This document shows, piece by piece, positions 15,492 through 23,248 of a stretch of DNA of 64,000 nucleotides. Each line of letters starts with the position of its first letter. The first letter of the stretch is position 1. The DNA comes from a virus. Below the pieces are notes generated by a model. That model did no database searches. It was not told where the DNA came from and saw only the letters and a program-made list of their open reading frames with translations. The position numbers and the translations under genes are program-made. The stretch covers positions 114,260 through 178,259 of the IMG/VR virus record IMGVR_UViG_3300017987_000006; one strand, 5' to 3'.

Positions 15492-15520
15492 TTGACTCGC
15501 AAAATGTGGGCTGCTATGAT
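15492..15520 (+). promoter_or_regulatory. Sigma70-like promoter of the RNAP gene
   Basis: TTGACT-17 nt-TATGAT with extended -10 TG. Confidence 0.75.
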
Positions 15521-15547
15521 CTTCGTCGTATACACAGGAGTCATCTA

Positions 15548-18500
15548 ATGGCGAGGCTCGCACCTGAAGAGGGGTTCGCCCTCCTCAAAGACCAGGTAGC
15601 GGAGACTGTCAAGGAGATCTTCCCGATCAAGGGAACCAAACACACTCTCCGCCTGGACGACATCGAAGTCAAAGACAACAAGGACATCGAGGACATCCGC
15701 TCCCAAAAGAAGGCGCGGCTAGAAGGCCGCACCTGGTCCGTTCCGGTCAACGGTAAGTTGTCTCTCGTTGATAACAAGACCGGGAAGGTGGTCGATCGGC
15801 GGACTCAGAGGATCATGAGCTTGCCCAAGGTGACCAACAGGCACTCCTACATCGTGGATGGTCAGGAGTACCAGATGGACAACCAGTGGCAGCTCAAGCC
15901 CGGCGTCTATTCCAGGCGTGATGAGAGGGGCGAGCTGGAGTCCATGTTCAACCTGAAGGGTAAGCACGCCTTCAAGGTGAAGTTCGACCCAAAGACAGCC
16001 AAGTTCTCCATGCTCAAGGGGACCACCAACGTTCCGCTCTACCCCATTATGCGCGAGCTCGGGGTGACGGACGAGGACCTCGAAAAGTCGTGGGGCAAGC
16101 AGATCTTGCAGTCCAACAAGGTCAAGTCTTCAGACGCTGCGCTCGAGCGGTTCTACAAAGCCGTAAACAGAGAAAAGCCCTCGGACCCGCGCCAGGCCAG
16201 GGAGTTTTTGCAGGAGTTCATGGACGGGGCGAAGATGGACCCCGACGTCGCCCGCATCACGTTGGGCGATAAGCATGACACTGTCGGCGGAAAGACGATC
16301 CAGCTCGCCTCGCAGAAGCTGTTGGGCATCAGCCGCGGTGACGTGAAACCAGATGCACGCGACAGCCTGATGTTCAAGAACTTCCGCTCGACAGAGGACT
16401 TCGCACGCGAAGCGCTTCAGACCAGGAGTGGAGAGATCTTACGGCGCGTCGGAAATAACCTGGACCGGAAAGGAAAGATCCAGGAGATCGTCGGGCCGGA
16501 CATTTTCAACCGTCCCATCAATGCGCTGTTCAAGAAGGCCAACCTGTCCAACCGACCAGACCAGACCAACCCGCTAGAAATGATCTCCGGAGCGATGAAG
16601 ACGACGATCATGGGTGAGGGTGGTATCACGAGCGAGCATAAGATCACTGAGGATGCAAAGCTCATCGATCCTTCCCACCTCGGTTTTCTCGATCCGATCC
16701 ATACTCCTGAATCGGCGCGAACAGGCGTGTCGTTGCATCTTCCTCTTGGGGCGCGAAAGAAGGGGAACAAGCTCGTCACCAAGATGTACAACATCAAGAC
16801 GGGTAAGATGGAGGATGTCGATCCCGAGACGGCGTACAACGCCAATATCGTCTTGCCAGATCAGGTGAAGTGGAGGGATGGAAAGCCCGTCCCAATCGGC
16901 AAGACCGTCAAGTTCAGCGGCCAGGAAAACGAAATCACAACGGGCAGTATGAAGGGGGCGGACTACGTAATGCCGGCCCCGGCACAGCTCTTCTCTGTCG
17001 CCTCCAATATGATCCCCTTCCTTCAGAACGACTCCGGGAACAGGGCAACGTACGCCAGCAAGCAGATGGAGCAGGCCATCCCACTGAAGCATCGAGAGTC
17101 TCCGTTGGTGCAGACCGTCATCGCCGCAGGGAAGAAAGAGACCAGCCTCAACAAGTTCATGGGGAAGATCAATTCCCATACGACTCCAATTGATGGAGAG
17201 GTTGTGCAGGTCAAAAGCGATAGCGTGGTGATCAAGGGAGCGGACGGGAAGCGCAAGGAGGTTCAGACTTACGACCACTTCCCGTTGAATGACGACAAGA
17301 GCTTCTTGCACTCGACGCCGCTGGTGAAGGTTGGCGATAAGGTCAAGAAGGGGCAGACCGTAGCCGACACGAATTTTACCAAAAAGGGAGATCTGGCACT
17401 CGGATCGAACTTGACGACGGCGTATGTCCCGTTCCACGGGTACAACTACGAAGATGGTGTGGTGATCTCCGAGTCCGGGGCGAAGCAGCTCACGAGCGAG
17501 CACATGCACCGTAAGGGCCTGGACGTCGGCAAGGAGCACACGCTCAGCAAGGACGCGTTCCTCAAGCACTACGGGATGACGCTCAAAAAAGACCAAGCTG
17601 ACAAGCTGGACGACGCGGGCGTGATCAAAAAGGGACAGAGGGTTGGTCCGGGAGACACCCTGGTAGCGGCCTTGCGGCATCGGGAAGAGACGGACGAGGA
17701 CAAGATCCGTAGGCGGATGCACAAGTCGTTGGTCAAACCATACGACAACGTCTCCGTCACCTGGGACAACGATCATCCAGGCGTCGTGACGAACGTGGTG
17801 AAGCGAGGCAAACGCGCAGAGGTTCATGTCAGGACTGAGGAGCCGGCGGAAATCGGCGATAAGATCAGCGGCAGGCATGGGGACAAGGGCATTATCACCC
17901 GCATCGTCCCAGATCACGAGATGCCCACAACCAAGGACGGGAAGCGTGTTCATCTGGCGCTGAACCCGGCGGGGGTTGCTGGACGTATCAATTTGGGACA
18001 GGTCCTTGAGGCAGCGGCCGGGAAGATCGCCGAGAAGACTGGAAAGCCATACCGCGTGCAGAATTTTGACGGCACTGAGGATATGACCGAGCGTGTCCAG
18101 AAAGAGCTCAAAGAGCACGGTCTGTCCGACAAGGAAGAGCTCATCGACCCCAAGACCGGCAAGACGATGGGGAGGGCTTTGGTGGGGCCGCGGTACATGC
18201 ACAAGCTTAGACACCAGGTCGGAAAGAAGCTCGTAGCCCGTGCTGGAGGACCGGACTACGCCTACGATATGAATCGCATTCCGAAGCGTGGCGGTCCGCA
18301 CGGGGCGCAGGCGTTGGACTCTTTGGGGGTCTACGCGATGTTGGCTTCCGGAGCCAAGGCGAATCTTCGTGAGATGCAGACTTACAAGAGCAACGCGGAG
18401 AACAACGATGAGCTGTGGTCTGCGGTTCAGACTGGAGATCCACTCCCAGCTCCCAGGCCCTCATTCGCCTACAACAAGTTCGTCGGCATGCTCAAGACTA

Positions 18501-21500
18501 TCGGCGTCAACACGGTCAAGCAAGGCAACACACTGAACCTGATGCCGCTGACGGACAAGCAAGTCAGGGAGATGAGTGAGGGTAGGACGATCAAGGACGC
18601 CGGGAAGATGGTCCTCGGGAAGAACCTCAAAGAGGAGAAGGGAGGCATCTTCGATAAGGACGCGACGGGCGGGCTGAACGGGACCAAGTGGTCCCATATC
18701 GAGCTGCCCGAGCGGATGCCGAATCCGATCTTCGAGAAGGCCATTGTCAGCCTCACCGGCATCAAGAAAAAAGATCTCGGCGCGCTGATGGACGGCAGCA
18801 AGGCCCTCAACACCAAGACGGGTCAGTTCACGTCGCCGGAGGAAGGGGTCTCGGCGGGAAAGGCTGTCGAGCACCTGCTGAAAAAGATCGATGTGGACGC
18901 GGAGCTCGCCTCCGCACAAAAGCAGATCCAAAACCCAAGCCTGAAAGGAGACAGGCTGGACAAGGTTAACAAGAAGATCAAATATCTGCGCTCGTTGAAG
19001 AAGCTGGGAATGACGCCGACGGAGGCGTACATGACCAAGACCGTGCCTGTCCTCCCGCCATCCATGCGTCCTCTGGCCGTGCGCCCCAACGGAGAGCTCG
19101 GTGTCGAAGATCTGAATGGGATGTACAAAGGTCTTGGCATCGCCATCAACAAGATGAAGGATGCCAGCCCGCTGCAGCTACCGGAAAAGATCAACAAGAG
19201 ACGAGCGGCGATCTATGATGCGATGAAGGGTCTGGCCGGGACTGGGGGGTACCTCAACCGAGACTACCGCGGGGTACTCGACATCATCGCCGGGAAGAAA
19301 GCGCAGGGTCCGGAGGGAAAGCCTGGGAGTCCGCGGGAGAGTTACTTCCAGTCCAAGTTGATCAAACGGAAGCAAGATCTGTCGATGCGGTCCACCATCA
19401 TCCCCGAGCCTGAGCTCGGCCTGGATGAGGTTGGGATCCCTCGCAAGGCTGCGATGGAAATGTACAAGCCGTTCATCGTCAGGGAGTTGGGGAACTTTGC
19501 TGGGCTGAGCCCACTGGCGGCGCAGCAAGCCATCAAGGACAGGGACCCGCTGGCCGCGCGTGCGCTGGAACGTGTGGTCAAAGAACGTCCGGTGATGTTG
19601 AAGCGCGATCCGGTCCTCCATAAGTACGGAGTACAAGCATTCAAGCCGGTGCTCACTAGCGGCAAGGCGATCAAGATCCATCCCCTGGTGACTGGCGGAT
19701 TCAACGCCGACTTTGACGGCAATTGTGTTGACGGCTGCTCCGAATTGGTGATAAGGTGTTCTGGTCTTGCGAGGGAGCACTTTATGAAATTCGGAGCAGA
19801 GTCTTTGACAGTGGCGAGAGATCCTGCGCTTGGGATCAATGCCGACCGTATTATGATCAAGAACTTTCCACGGGAGGAAGAACCACACAGGTACGATCGA
19901 AATGGCGCTGCCGTCTACCGTGTCCCGGACGGATTGCAGGTCCTTTCGTACGATCACTTCTTGGGTGAGTCGACGTTCGAGGACGTCACTGAGCTAACCA
20001 TCGAGGAGGACTGTCCTGTAGTCGAAGTGCGTTATGCGTCTGGACACAAGGTTACTGCTTCTACTAATGAGTCTTTGTGTGTCTATGACCACGAGACGGG
20101 AATGCTGCGCAAGGCACGGCCGGAGGAATCTGTAGGGGCACTAAGCCCTGTCATCTCGTCTCCTCCCGGTGATAAGCACGACAAGTTTTTCGGGTGGATG
20201 GTAGGCGCTTTTGTGTCTGATGGATTCTTCACCAACGGGCGCATCGGAATCACCAAAGTCGATGACGAGTTCCGCTCAACGTTTGGGGATGCTCTAAGAA
20301 CGTTCGGCGATGTGTACGCAAGCAACACATACCGCAGAGAAAAAAAGGCACCGACCGATTTCTCAGAGCATAGCGTCAAAGATCACTACACCGTGGGGGG
20401 AGAGATCAAAGACCTGTTCATGAGGTGCTACACCGTAGAGTACAGATCTTATCTACGGGATGGAACGCGGAGCGGCGAATTAAAGAATAAGCGGGCAGCA
20501 CTATACAAGCGCCTACCACAGGACATCGGCGACTATTCCAGAGATGCCTTGCTCGGTGTATTGTCCGGCTTGTTGGATGGGGATGGGACACTTTCCTGGA
20601 GCAGGTCTAAAACGAAGGAGCAGTTCCTGGCTTCGTATTCCACCAGCTCCCACCAGCTGATGGAAGACGTCCGATATTTGTGTCACTTGCTAAATGTTCG
20701 CTGCTCTGTGTCACCAGTCTACCCCCGTGCGAATAGGGCGCAGAGGCACATCAACTATGTCATCTCATTCAGCACCGTAGATATTGAGAAGCTGGCTGGG
20801 GAGTTGCGCCTCGCTGCTTACTCGGATACGTTGATCAAACTGGCAGCGAACCCGCTGTCCAAGGATGATCGGGACGTGGTTCCTGTGCCGATATCGATCT
20901 TACGCGGCATGATCAGTAAGAAGAGTGTGGTGTTCAAAAAAGACCCAAAGCTCTGTAGATCGCTGGCTACGTTGGCGTCAAAAAATAAGAGACGTCCGAG
21001 GGTCTCCAGAGACACGGCGCTCAGAATGGTCCCCTATCTGAATTTGGAAAACGCACTGGAAGCATATTGGTCATCCTTAGTGAAATCTGATGTCCGATGG
21101 TCTTACGTGAAAGAAGTCGAAGATAAGGGAAAGACGACCGTATACGATTTGGTCGTGCCTACTACCAAGATCTTCGCGGTCAATGGTGGGCTGGTGGTGT
21201 GGGACACCATGGCGGCATTCGTTCCTCTGACCTCCGAGGCGGTGGACGAGGCGCGGAAGATGTATCCATCCAGGAACCTTTTCAGTCCCGCTACCGGAAG
21301 CTTGATGTACAAGCCGACGAAGGAGAGTCAACTTGGGCTCTACAAGCTGACCCAGCAGGGCAAGCGGACGGACAAGGCGTTCAAGACCGTGGCCGAAGCT
21401 GCGAGGGCTGCCTCAGCAGGATCCGTGGGGATGACTGATGTGGTCAAGATTGGCGGACAGCAGACCACCATTGGGCGCGCTCTGGTAGCCAACGCGCTAC

Positions 21501-23248
21501 CTCAATCCATGCGCGGCGGTGTGATGAGCGGGAAGACCCCACTGGACGGGAAGGGGCAGACGGAGCTGCTGACTCGCTTGGCGAAAGATCACAAGGGGTC
21601 ATTCGGCGAAGTCGTCAACAAGATCAAAGACCTCGGAAACAGCTACGCCACGCAGACCGCTTCTTCGCTTGGCCTCGAAGATCTCCGCGCCGACAAGAAG
21701 CTGCGGGACCGCATCCTAAAGTCCGCGGACGCCAAGGTGAAGGAGATCATGTCGGGGAAGGGGACGAAGGAGCAAAAGCAGAAGAAGGCGATCCAGATCT
21801 ACGACAAAGCATCGGAGGCAATGATCAAGGCTGCCGAAATCGACCACGCCAAAAACCCTACTGAGCTATTTCAAATGTTGAAGGCGGGGATCAAACCGCA
21901 GATGGGCGCGTACCGTCAAATCACCATGGCTCCGATGCTGATGATGAACGCCAAGGGCAAGGTCATTCCAGATCCAATCCGCAAGTCCTACTCTGAGGGC
22001 ATCGATGTGGGCGACTACTGGACGCAGATGTCCGGGGCGCGCAAGGGCGTTGTACAGAAGGTCCAGTCTGTCCAGGAGCCTGGGTACTTTACCAAGCAGG
22101 TAATCAACTCGGTGATGAACAACGCCATCGGGGAGCAGGACTGCGGGACCAAGAAGGGGATCACACTCCCTATAGAAGAGCGCGACGTGCTAGATCGATA
22201 CCTGGCAAAGGACACCAAGTCAGGACGCAAGACCTTCAAGGCAGGGACCTTGATCACTCCCGGTGTTCGCGACAGTCTCAGGAACAACCGCGTCGGCCGT
22301 GTCGTCGTTCGTTCTCCGCTCCGATGTGAGCACAGCGGAACGGGGATTTGTGCTCGGTGTTATGGTAACGATGAGGATGGGGCTCCCCCACCCACCGGCC
22401 GGAACGTCGGCATCATCAGCGCCCAAGCCATCGGCGAGCGGGCAACTCAGCTCGCCATGCGGACCTTCCACGAAGGCGGGGTGGCCCCTGTCGGCGCGGC
22501 GGGGAAGCAGAAGGCCGCACTGACGGACGAGTTCAACCGGGTGCAGCAGCTCGTTCAGATGCACCAGAACATCCCTGGGTCTGCTCCTCTCAGCTCAGTC
22601 AACGGGAGGATAACCAAGATCCAAAAAGATCCTGCTGGCGGGAGCAACGTGTTCATCTCGGCGGGAGATAAAGAAGTACGCCACTATGTCCCACAAAACC
22701 GGGGCGAGCCGCTGACGTTTGTGGGGGACAGGGCCAGAAAGCTGACGCGTGGTATGCAGATCCAAAAGGGTGCTCCCCTCTCGGCCGGTCCGATAAACCC
22801 GAACGAGCTGTTGCCCCTGGCGGGAGTGAACAAGGTGCAGGGATACCTGGCCGGACAGATGTACGATCTGTACAAGCAGCAGGGGATACGTCGGAGGAAC
22901 ATCGAGACCGTCGTCAAGAGTATGACGAACCTGACCAAGGTTTCTGACCCGGGCGGACAGTCGGACTTCATTCGAGGCGACTTCGCCCCTACGTCCAAGC
23001 TCCAAGCGCTCAACAAGAAGCTGGTCGCGCAGGGAAAGAAGCCTATCGCACACAGGCCGGTGTTGAAGGGGGTCAAAACGTTGCCGCTCGACATGCAGAC
23101 AGACTGGATGGCAAGATTGAACCATGAGCAGCTTGCTGGTACAGTCGTCGATGCGGCGAACCAAGGATGGAGCAGCAATATCCACGGAGAGCATCCGATC
23201 CCAGCGCTTGCCTACGCAGCTGAATTCGGAAAGAAGAAACCATACTAG
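15548..23248 (+). CDS. Multisubunit-type RNA polymerase, beta and beta' fused in one chain, with intein
   Basis: Beta motifs GFLDPIHTPE, GYNYEDG, GDKISGRHGDKG, KLRHQV; beta' motifs KRDPVLH, NADFDG, RSPLRC...CARCYG, AQAIGERATQLAMRTFH; ATG 15548 with AGGAG. Confidence 0.95.
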   Translation: MARLAPEEGFALLKDQVAETVKEIFPIKGTKHTLRLDDIEVKDNKDIEDIRSQKKARLEGRTWSVPVNGKLSLVDNKTGKVVDRRTQRIMSLPKVTNRHSYIVDGQEYQMDNQWQLKPGVYSRRDERGELESMFNLKGKHAFKVKFDPKTAKFSMLKGTTNVPLYPIMRELGVTDEDLEKSWGKQILQSNKVKSSDAALERFYKAVNREKPSDPRQAREFLQEFMDGAKMDPDVARITLGDKHDTVGGKTIQLASQKLLGISRGDVKPDARDSLMFKNFRSTEDFAREALQTRSGEILRRVGNNLDRKGKIQEIVGPDIFNRPINALFKKANLSNRPDQTNPLEMISGAMKTTIMGEGGITSEHKITEDAKLIDPSHLGFLDPIHTPESARTGVSLHLPLGARKKGNKLVTKMYNIKTGKMEDVDPETAYNANIVLPDQVKWRDGKPVPIGKTVKFSGQENEITTGSMKGADYVMPAPAQLFSVASNMIPFLQNDSGNRATYASKQMEQAIPLKHRESPLVQTVIAAGKKETSLNKFMGKINSHTTPIDGEVVQVKSDSVVIKGADGKRKEVQTYDHFPLNDDKSFLHSTPLVKVGDKVKKGQTVADTNFTKKGDLALGSNLTTAYVPFHGYNYEDGVVISESGAKQLTSEHMHRKGLDVGKEHTLSKDAFLKHYGMTLKKDQADKLDDAGVIKKGQRVGPGDTLVAALRHREETDEDKIRRRMHKSLVKPYDNVSVTWDNDHPGVVTNVVKRGKRAEVHVRTEEPAEIGDKISGRHGDKGIITRIVPDHEMPTTKDGKRVHLALNPAGVAGRINLGQVLEAAAGKIAEKTGKPYRVQNFDGTEDMTERVQKELKEHGLSDKEELIDPKTGKTMGRALVGPRYMHKLRHQVGKKLVARAGGPDYAYDMNRIPKRGGPHGAQALDSLGVYAMLASGAKANLREMQTYKSNAENNDELWSAVQTGDPLPAPRPSFAYNKFVGMLKTIGVNTVKQGNTLNLMPLTDKQVREMSEGRTIKDAGKMVLGKNLKEEKGGIFDKDATGGLNGTKWSHIELPERMPNPIFEKAIVSLTGIKKKDLGALMDGSKALNTKTGQFTSPEEGVSAGKAVEHLLKKIDVDAELASAQKQIQNPSLKGDRLDKVNKKIKYLRSLKKLGMTPTEAYMTKTVPVLPPSMRPLAVRPNGELGVEDLNGMYKGLGIAINKMKDASPLQLPEKINKRRAAIYDAMKGLAGTGGYLNRDYRGVLDIIAGKKAQGPEGKPGSPRESYFQSKLIKRKQDLSMRSTIIPEPELGLDEVGIPRKAAMEMYKPFIVRELGNFAGLSPLAAQQAIKDRDPLAARALERVVKERPVMLKRDPVLHKYGVQAFKPVLTSGKAIKIHPLVTGGFNADFDGNCVDGCSELVIRCSGLAREHFMKFGAESLTVARDPALGINADRIMIKNFPREEEPHRYDRNGAAVYRVPDGLQVLSYDHFLGESTFEDVTELTIEEDCPVVEVRYASGHKVTASTNESLCVYDHETGMLRKARPEESVGALSPVISSPPGDKHDKFFGWMVGAFVSDGFFTNGRIGITKVDDEFRSTFGDALRTFGDVYASNTYRREKKAPTDFSEHSVKDHYTVGGEIKDLFMRCYTVEYRSYLRDGTRSGELKNKRAALYKRLPQDIGDYSRDALLGVLSGLLDGDGTLSWSRSKTKEQFLASYSTSSHQLMEDVRYLCHLLNVRCSVSPVYPRANRAQRHINYVISFSTVDIEKLAGELRLAAYSDTLIKLAANPLSKDDRDVVPVPISILRGMISKKSVVFKKDPKLCRSLATLASKNKRRPRVSRDTALRMVPYLNLENALEAYWSSLVKSDVRWSYVKEVEDKGKTTVYDLVVPTTKIFAVNGGLVVWDTMAAFVPLTSEAVDEARKMYPSRNLFSPATGSLMYKPTKESQLGLYKLTQQGKRTDKAFKTVAEAARAASAGSVGMTDVVKIGGQQTTIGRALVANALPQSMRGGVMSGKTPLDGKGQTELLTRLAKDHKGSFGEVVNKIKDLGNSYATQTASSLGLEDLRADKKLRDRILKSADAKVKEIMSGKGTKEQKQKKAIQIYDKASEAMIKAAEIDHAKNPTELFQMLKAGIKPQMGAYRQITMAPMLMMNAKGKVIPDPIRKSYSEGIDVGDYWTQMSGARKGVVQKVQSVQEPGYFTKQVINSVMNNAIGEQDCGTKKGITLPIEERDVLDRYLAKDTKSGRKTFKAGTLITPGVRDSLRNNRVGRVVVRSPLRCEHSGTGICARCYGNDEDGAPPPTGRNVGIISAQAIGERATQLAMRTFHEGGVAPVGAAGKQKAALTDEFNRVQQLVQMHQNIPGSAPLSSVNGRITKIQKDPAGGSNVFISAGDKEVRHYVPQNRGEPLTFVGDRARKLTRGMQIQKGAPLSAGPINPNELLPLAGVNKVQGYLAGQMYDLYKQQGIRRRNIETVVKSMTNLTKVSDPGGQSDFIRGDFAPTSKLQALNKKLVAQGKKPIAHRPVLKGVKTLPLDMQTDWMARLNHEQLAGTVVDAANQGWSSNIHGEHPIPALAYAAEFGKKKPY
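19724..21205 (+). mobile_element. Atypical intein with LAGLIDADG endonuclease in the RNAP active-site motif
   Basis: CVDG block A, VGAFVSDG and LSGLLDGDG motifs, VYDLVVP block F, ends VVWD then Thr; preceded by DFDGN; lower GC than flanks. Confidence 0.85.

Follow-up and report, generated by a model that had tools for sequence, protein, structure and literature searches.

An intein family that encodes asparagine at the place of the third catalytic aspartate of a phage RNA polymerase

How does a multisubunit-type RNA polymerase come to have the third aspartate of its Mg-binding motif encoded as asparagine, directly before an intein? The question is raised by a phage gene for a fused β-β′ RNA polymerase (15506..23248, + strand; 2580 codons with the intein, ~2086 without it) in a 64,000-nucleotide stretch of IMG/VR virus record IMGVR_UViG_3300017987_000006 (positions 114,260 to 178,259; the whole stretch analysed is called the window), which is the final 64 kb of a phage record of 178,259 bp that is complete and has direct terminal repeats. 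We found that this Asn is a fixed feature of a large intein family occupying the same site, and that it covaries with the catalytic residues of the intein. Our preferred explanation, to which we assign a probability of roughly 0.45, is that of a live, class-1-type intein capable of homing, in which the N-terminal centre has been rewired, does without His, and requires Asn at position −1; splicing would leave DFDGN in a polymerase that most likely works with Asn at a cost.

We first describe the residues at and around the two junctions. The N-extein ends in NADFDGN (19703..19723; all features of the locus are on the + strand), the counterpart of NADFDGD[T/A/Q/S/K/E]M in intein-less homologs, and Asn(−1) is specified by an AAT codon (19721..19723) where a GAY codon would encode the catalytic third Asp. 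The intein follows in frame and comprises 494 residues, from Cys1 to Asp494 (19724..21205), with a G+C content of 51.9% against 57.5% and 58.6% in the exteins. Cys1 (codon 19724-19726) is the nucleophile of block A (CVDGCSELVIRCS, 19724..19762). Block B (GHKVTASTNESLCV, 20042..20083) contains Ser113 (B:7), Asn115 (B:9), Glu116 (B:10, normally His), and Ser117, so that the Thr(B:7)-x-x-His(B:10) signature of class 1 inteins is replaced by Ser113-Thr-Asn115-Glu116. Block F (TTVYDLVVPTTKIFAV, 21134..21181) provides Asp475 (F:4) as well as Lys482, which stands at the usual His position of canonical inteins and which we tentatively equate, by comparison with the Mtu RecA intein, with the F:13 His. 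Block G (NGGLVVWD, 21182..21205) ends in Trp493-Asp494, whereas a penultimate His and a terminal Asn are the norm, and the C-extein starts with TMAAFVPL (21206..21229), in which Thr(+1) (codon 21206-21208) is the nucleophile.

Despite these substitutions, the insert has further hallmarks of a class 1 intein, namely (i) an in-frame position at a conserved site at which close homologs have no insert, (ii) nucleophiles at Cys1 and Thr(+1), and (iii) a HINT fold. The Pfam Intein_splicing match is sub-threshold (28.3 bits; cut-off 35.8), and the AlphaFold model of the intein, built on 29 sequences, has a mean predicted local distance difference test (pLDDT) score of 87.2; its Foldseek matches are PI-PfuI (E 1e-18), the TliVMA intein (3e-17), and PI-SceI, with I-DmoI and I-Tsp061I also matching the endonuclease part. 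A class 3 intein, which would combine a WCT motif and a block F Cys nucleophile with a non-nucleophilic residue 1, was ruled out, as residue 1 is Cys and F:4 is Asp475.

To place the window's intein among its relatives, 271 proteins were collected by a junction-region search (5.8 billion proteins), a HMMER search with the intein alone, and a further search for the class IV inteins described below; the exhaustive HMMER search, against 1.84 billion cluster representatives, gave 534 matches, 129 of them below 1e-30. DxDGNC is carried by 138 of the 271 proteins. A MAFFT alignment of 163 distinct inteins, all from the NADFDGD insertion site, distinguishes four classes, which we number I to IV. Class I comprises 131 distinct inteins, the window's included, and in every one of them residue −1 is Asn, residue 1 is Cys, residue 115 is Asn, F:4 is Asp475, and the last residue is Asp494. 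Block B reads Ser-x-Asn115 in this class, followed at residue 116 by Glu (119 inteins), Asp (6), Ala (3), Pro (2), or Gln (1), and never by His. Lys482 is present in 122 of the 131, whereas class II mostly has Trp there; the penultimate residue is Tyr (61), Trp (59), or Phe (7), and the +1 residue is Thr (127) or Ser (4). Some class I inteins seemed to end in His-Asn; this was an artefact of alignment, due to further inteins carried by the same proteins, and the real ends are IYD/T and IWD/T (the slash marks the junction).

Class II (20 inteins) has an Asp at −1 throughout, and residue 1 is Ser (15), Cys (4), or Thr (1). Its block B is Ser-x-Asp115 (20/20) with His116 in 18 of 20, its terminal residue is Asp in all 20, and its +1 residue is Thr (17), Cys (2), or Ser (1). 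Class III (nine inteins) follows an intact DFDGD with [D/Q]Q and ends in Ser-Asn before Thr. Class IV reads NADFNGD/S at its start and T[R/H]N/T at its end, with a normal, His-containing block B; here it is the second Asp of the triad, the one before Gly, that is encoded as Asn. DFNGD accompanies class IV always, in nine protein clusters (P0066, P0074, and P0256-P0262 are members) and in four IMG/VR loci (L067:2097-2117, L106:2748-2768, L122, and L143), on different polymerase backgrounds. The 46 intein-less alleles all carry DFDGD, followed by Thr (28), Ala (10), Gln (4), Ser (2), Lys (1), or Glu (1).

One pattern in this alignment links the extein residue −1 to block B. Residue −1 is always identical to B:9 (Asn with Asn in 131 inteins, Asp with Asp in 20), Glu replaces His at B:10 only in the Asn class, and Asn(−1) is never found with the His-containing centre of class II. 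Block-B residues, His B:10 among them, are located at the N-terminal scissile bond, and His B:10 normally sits close enough to the scissile amide nitrogen for a hydrogen bond (PMC4031507). Since block B lines this bond, the perfect match between −1 and B:9 is most simply read as a direct, co-evolved contact, and a single AAY-to-GAY reversion at −1 would, judging from this covariation, break splicing. The Asn codon is AAC in six distinct IMG/VR RNA polymerase loci and AAT in two, in addition to AAT in the window; because both codons are in use, conservation acts on the amino acid rather than on the nucleotide. An earlier reading of the locus, made without database searches and called here the sequence-only reading, had pointed out the replacement of His B:10 by Glu, of the penultimate His by Trp, and of the terminal Asn by Asp, and had named two findings that would undo its case, a GAC codon at 19721 and homologs without the pattern. 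The three substitutions are real and conserved across class I, the codon is AAT, and the pattern is universal in the family (131/131).

The exact positions of the splice junctions decide which residue is left in the polymerase. The sequence-only reading had reasoned that excision of the segment from Cys1 through Trp-Asp would leave DFDGN-TM, and that DFDGD-TM would be regained only if the segment from Asn(−1) through Trp were removed; this layout and its arithmetic are correct. The residue after the terminal Asp is Thr, Ser, or Cys in all 151 inteins of classes I and II, whereas it is non-nucleophilic in 16 of the 46 intein-less alleles. Because residue 1 is always a nucleophile, and because only Thr, Ser, or Cys follows the terminal Asp, the junctions are assigned to their canonical places, before Cys1 and after Asp494, and standard chemistry at these junctions would yield DFDGN-TM. 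The same reading had listed undescribed splicing chemistry among its options. The atypical residues behind that proposal are genuine, but they do not in themselves demand new chemistry: inteins that end in Asp, Gln, or Glu follow the standard pathway through cyclisation of that residue, and some 5% of active inteins are without a penultimate His (His G:6) (PMC4031507).

The Asn codon also travels with the intein. On intein trees (FastTree, 163 rows; IQ-TREE LG+C20, 56 rows), class I is one clade, with a Shimodaira-Hasegawa-like approximate likelihood ratio test (SH-aLRT) value of 100 in the IQ-TREE analysis, and its sister group is a subclade of class II (support 95). If the tree is rooted on class III, a root that we assume, class I is nested in a grade of Asp(−1), Asp-terminated inteins, and class IV, which is on a long branch, is placed there likewise. 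On a tree of the extein flanks, by comparison, class I is scattered, and at least 13 changes are needed. Moreover, P0003, which has Asn and the intein, is sister to P0069, which has Asp and no intein, at 92.8% identity over 2051 residues, and P0004 and P0049 form a similar pair with and without the intein, such that ~93%-identical polymerases read either DFDGD-TM or DFDGN, intein, TM. Going by the scattered placement and the near-identical pairs, the Asn codon thus behaves like a piece of the mobile element, which is what flank co-conversion in endonuclease-driven homing would produce.

A putative homing endonuclease is encoded within the insert. Its first LAGLIDADG motif (FFGWMVGAFVSDGFFT, 20186..20233) includes Gly157, Trp158, Gly161, Asp166, and Gly167, all of them conserved in 91% or more of class I, and its second (ALLGVLSGLLDGDGTL, 20546..20593) lies in the region of the LAGLIDADG_3 match (PF14528; insert residues 276-332; 38.7 bits, cut-off 22.5), with Gly278, Gly282, and Asp287 conserved. 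An acidic residue is kept in both motifs (Asp166 in VSDG and Asp287 in LDGDG), and the fold agrees with a two-motif enzyme. The insert is thus, as the sequence-only reading had it, an intein carrying an intact-looking LAGLIDADG endonuclease, which is predicted to be active in homing. Class I further contains endonuclease-less mini-inteins of ~290 residues (L013:6786-7661, − strand; P0042; P0071) that keep both the N/C and the VVWD/T junctions, which fits ongoing selection for splicing after the loss of mobility.

We therefore turn to what splicing would do at this site. In the pathway that we favour, Cys1 would form a thioester at the Asn(−1)-Cys1 bond, Thr(+1) would take over the N-extein, cyclisation of Asp494 would free the intein, as in known inteins terminated by Asp or Gln, and an O-to-N shift would give NADFDGN-TMAAFVPL. 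Asn(−1) would belong to a co-evolved N-terminal catalytic centre, paired with the Asn at B:9 and the Glu at B:10; it would for this reason not be an error, and its reversion by a single A-to-G change would not be tolerated. The ligated polymerase would at first carry Asn, most likely retain it, and probably use its side-chain oxygen to ligate Mg-A, so that the catalytic cost of the Asn ligand would be imposed on the phage by a selfish element.

The enzyme that would bear this cost appears to have no substitute. The gene has Pfam matches to Rpb2_6 (E 1.5e-61), Rpb1_2, Rpb1_5, and Rpb2_3, and a PF00623 search of the whole 178-kb genome detected it as the sole β′-type gene, with no second polymerase that could make the intein-bearing copy dispensable. 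While its Rpb1 and Rpb2 domains are otherwise present, the three Asp residues that characterize β′ subunits are not encoded together: DFDGN precedes the intein, and an Asp follows only as the last residue of the intein. Either the polymerase works without the third Asp, or maturation re-creates the Asp; tolerance of Asn by the enzyme and post-splicing conversion of Asn to Asp had both been named in the sequence-only reading.

Several observations weigh against retention of Asn. Exchanging Asp for Asn in two-metal polymerases generally lowers the rate by orders of magnitude. In the two-barrel polymerase QDE-1, where the third Asp binds metal A only, an Ala mutant had no detectable activity (PMC9508822). 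The Asp triad is invariant in the 46 intein-less alleles, and no intein-less DFDGN or DFNGD allele of the phage polymerase was found among these proteins, in IMG/VR, or in JGI metagenomes, which indicates that Asn is not freely tolerated. An IMG/VR scan for ADFDGNxM gave six matches, none of them a polymerase, the one β′-like candidate being a 146-residue protein between terminase and portal; a scan of JGI metagenomes gave 11 matches, none of the phage-polymerase type, with DFDGNQM only in three bacterial rpoC and three plastid-like copies. Furthermore, no recurrent compensating change was seen in the exteins (250-residue flanks, 110 proteins), nor was any seen in eight full-length pairs of a class I allele and its nearest Asp-bearing relative. 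Finally, the terminal residue of the intein is absolutely conserved as Asp and is never the usually better Asn, which would fit a second role for this Asp. On the other side, the descent of class I from an Asp(−1) ancestor means that the first Asn mutant had to be viable, and the Asn of class IV, at −3 and thus beyond the reach of splice chemistry, suggests a solution at the level of the polymerase.

The rpoC and plastid-like sequences are described here for completeness. The bacterial rpoC contigs (L157:3921-3958, L161, and L166) read NADFDGNQMAVH and may be rare natural variants or assembly errors. The plastid-like copies (L160, L162, and L163) have the same reading, and L162 and L163 contain in-frame stops within the stretch shown.

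Several of the points raised against Asn retention would be explained if the intein itself restored the Asp, the main rival explanation, which we consider possible though less likely than retention. Splicing would convert Asn(−1) to Asp by way of a succinimide or of a thioester on the side chain. In such a scheme, Glu116, which takes the place of the His B:10 that normally hydrogen-bonds the Cys1 amide nitrogen, would deprotonate that nitrogen; the nitrogen would then attack the side-chain amide of Asn(−1), oriented by Asn115, with loss of ammonia and formation of a succinimide across the junction; and the imide, as an activated acyl donor, could be opened by Cys1 without a catalytic His. In a variant, Cys1 would attack the side-chain amide directly, in the manner of the Cys/Glu/Lys amidases. 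Transfer to Thr(+1) and hydrolysis of any leftover side-chain link would in either case put Asp at −1 and regain DFDGD. A metal-ligand position of the polymerase would in this way serve the intein as a catalyst. Glu-assisted attack on an Asn or Gln side-chain amide has established parallels in the HK97 capsid and the isopeptide bonds of pilins. In favour of this scheme, Asn(−1) is strictly associated with Cys1, Asn115, Glu/Asp116, and Lys482 and is absent from inteins with the His-containing centre of class II, and ~93%-identical polymerases exist with DFDGD or with DFDGN plus intein and no compensating change; the lack of intein-less Asn alleles in IMG/VR and JGI metagenomes fits as well, and both the loss of His and the invariance of the triad elsewhere would be explained. 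Since the His at B:10 normally lies near the scissile amide nitrogen (PMC4031507), a carboxylate in its place would also be well positioned as a base. However, the scheme is wholly inferred and has no precedent in inteins, and succinimide opening normally gives mostly isoaspartate (isoAsp). Moreover, given the Asp(−1) ancestor of class I, the first Asn(−1) mutant must have been viable before any new chemistry arose, and the class IV Asn at −3 is out of reach, such that a second explanation would be needed there. If the Asp were instead made after splicing, by deamidation of DFDGN in the folded polymerase (spontaneous, assisted by metal or carboxylate, or catalysed by a separate enzyme), class IV would be covered too, as its Asn precedes Gly in DFNGD and Asn-Gly is the most deamidation-prone dipeptide; the confinement of Asn to intein-bearing alleles has also been counted in favour of this route. 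We nevertheless judge it improbable, since Asn-Thr in peptides deamidates over weeks and mainly to isoAsp, amide hydrolysis gains little from Mg2+, a poor Lewis acid, and so cheap a self-repair predicts intein-less Asn alleles, of which none were found in IMG/VR or JGI metagenomes.

Two further accounts change what is excised, or deny that anything is. The sequence-only reading had offered removal of the segment from Asn(−1) through Trp, by which Gly(−2) would be joined to the terminal Asp as the true third Asp of the polymerase. Compared with intein-less alleles, the DNA indeed shows an exact insertion of these codons between GGN and GAY, and the terminal Asp is invariant in the 151 inteins of classes I and II while residue −1 varies between Asn and Asp. 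Against this stand the two nucleophiles, located exactly at the canonical junctions, and the restriction to Thr, Ser, or Cys after the Asp, which applies only when the intein is present; in addition, no known chemistry would cleave Gly-Asn and Trp-Asp bonds with these groups, and the DFNGD of class IV would stay unexplained, all of which makes such a shifted register very unlikely. We give even less credence to the view that the insert does not splice, that the gene is defective, or that the Asn is an artefact of sequencing error, RNA-level removal, RNA editing, or recoding. A sequencing error or a lone odd allele was ruled out by the occurrence of DxDGNC in 138 proteins from many samples, with AAC and AAT both used; splice-site residues are invariant even in the endonuclease-less mini-inteins; and the gene is the only β′ gene of a complete genome. 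RNA-level removal, another suggestion of the sequence-only reading, finds no support, and an RNA intron was ruled out, as the frame is continuous, the insert has a HINT fold, and no Rfam match up to E 1 was obtained in 19300-21600. A recoding phage tRNA was likewise ruled out, Aragorn finding only a tRNA-Met in the 178-kb genome, and TadA-type A-to-I editing is unlikely because the bases flanking the Asn codon vary among relatives and form no UACG-type site.

Structural comparisons place the window's intein closest to PI-PfuI (1dq3), TliVMA (7qss), and PI-SceI (1vde), its best structural matches, in which a HINT domain is likewise interrupted by a two-motif LAGLIDADG endonuclease. They share Cys1, Asp F:4, and Thr(+1) with it and, like it, are lodged at a strongly conserved catalytic site in an essential enzyme. 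In contrast to them, the window's intein has Ser-x-Asn-Glu instead of Thr-x-x-His, Trp/Tyr instead of the penultimate His, and a terminal Asp instead of Asn, and its class has a fixed Asn as the −1 extein residue even though an Asp is needed there by the host enzyme. Known inteins with Asp or Gln at the end (Amitai, Dassa & Pietrokovski 2004, as cited in PMC1635734) include the CIV ribonucleotide reductase (RNR) and Pab/Mma Pol II inteins (PMC4031507). Like the window's intein, they resolve the branched intermediate with a C-terminal residue other than Asn that is able to cyclise; they are scattered cases, however, whereas the terminal Asp is universal in classes I and II (151/151), is accompanied in class I by the loss of both catalytic His residues, and sits exactly at the position of the host's catalytic Asp. 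The Tko CDC21-1 intein, in 2014 the only functional intein known to lack His B:10 (PMC4031507), also splices without the most conserved intein residue by using a compensating one; its Lys is outside the motifs, whereas the Glu of class I is at B:10 itself, in a class of more than 130 members, and covaries with residue −1.

Other inteins are found in related catalytic regions. The Pol II (PolD DP2) inteins of Pyrococcus abyssi and relatives are located in the homologous catalytic loop of a two-double-psi-barrel polymerase (PMC4996933), but their host is an archaeal DNA polymerase. Inteins in the second-largest subunits of eukaryotic and viral RNA polymerases similarly occupy buried, conserved sites near the active centre (PMC1635734); these subunits are β/RPB2-like and the host motif is intact, whereas the window's intein is in the β′ Mg-binding motif and alters it. 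Among the papers searched, none joins "intein" with NADFDGD, and those joining "intein" with DFDGD do not deal with this family. We know of no report of a catalytic Asp encoded as Asn in PolD DP2 inteins.

Searches of 50,697 phage records, with the intein by tblastn and with the locus by blastn, found no cultured phage that carries the window's intein. The polymerase itself has distant, intein-less relatives in cultured phages (~35-36% identity), namely Salmonella phage Arash and Vibrio phages D69, D148, and D181. Arash (OQ632216, gp206 and gp216; L035) and D69 (L036) have the same virion-module polymerase, with ADYDGDALSM and ADYDGDAMSV, respectively, at the triad; it is split in two genes ~85 residues past the triad, and in Arash several genes lie between the two.

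The collected proteins vary considerably in length. Homologs of 2900-3990 residues (for example P0010, P0015, P0036, P0045, and P0096) have room for several inteins and contain extra Hint or LAGLIDADG Pfam domains, and the polymerase gene appears to be an intein hot spot. At the other extreme, many database proteins of 480-570 residues (P0125, P0144, P0170, P0178, P0184, and others) begin a few residues inside the class I intein and stop ~85 residues past it; these may reflect gene calls truncated on short contigs, or else polymerases that are split at the intein. The class III proteins (P0036, P0040, P0045, P0077, P0078, P0085, P0096, P0117, and P0118) have no residue-1 nucleophile, a block B that reads TDDDER, an ILSN/TM end, and an intact DFDGD, and their insert may be a class 2- or class 3-like intein.

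In summary, our analyses identified (i) the covariation of residue −1 with B:9, together with the exchange of His for Glu at B:10 relative to the sister class, (ii) the position of class I within an Asp(−1) grade, (iii) near-identical polymerases with and without the intein, (iv) a +1 position that is limited to nucleophiles when the intein is present, and (v) the DFNGD of class IV. Few features of multisubunit RNA polymerases are as invariant as the DFDGD aspartate triad, and of all intein residues His B:10 has been called the most conserved; the large natural family described here departs from both rules at once, in two changes that are coupled. Natural controls for separating the explanations exist in the Asp(−1) inteins of class II, the ~93%-identical intein-less alleles, and the DFNGD of class IV, and a His-free, Glu-based N-terminal activation could interest intein engineers. 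If the Asn is retained, as we tentatively favour, this would be a multisubunit-type RNA polymerase with an Asn ligand, and it would give a measure of the catalytic burden that a homing element can place on an essential enzyme. If the Asn is converted, the intein would chemically edit its host protein from Asn to Asp, which would be new protein-splicing chemistry; the host gene would then depend on the intein, since its precise deletion would encode a dead DFDGN, and this would amount to a new kind of genetic addiction.

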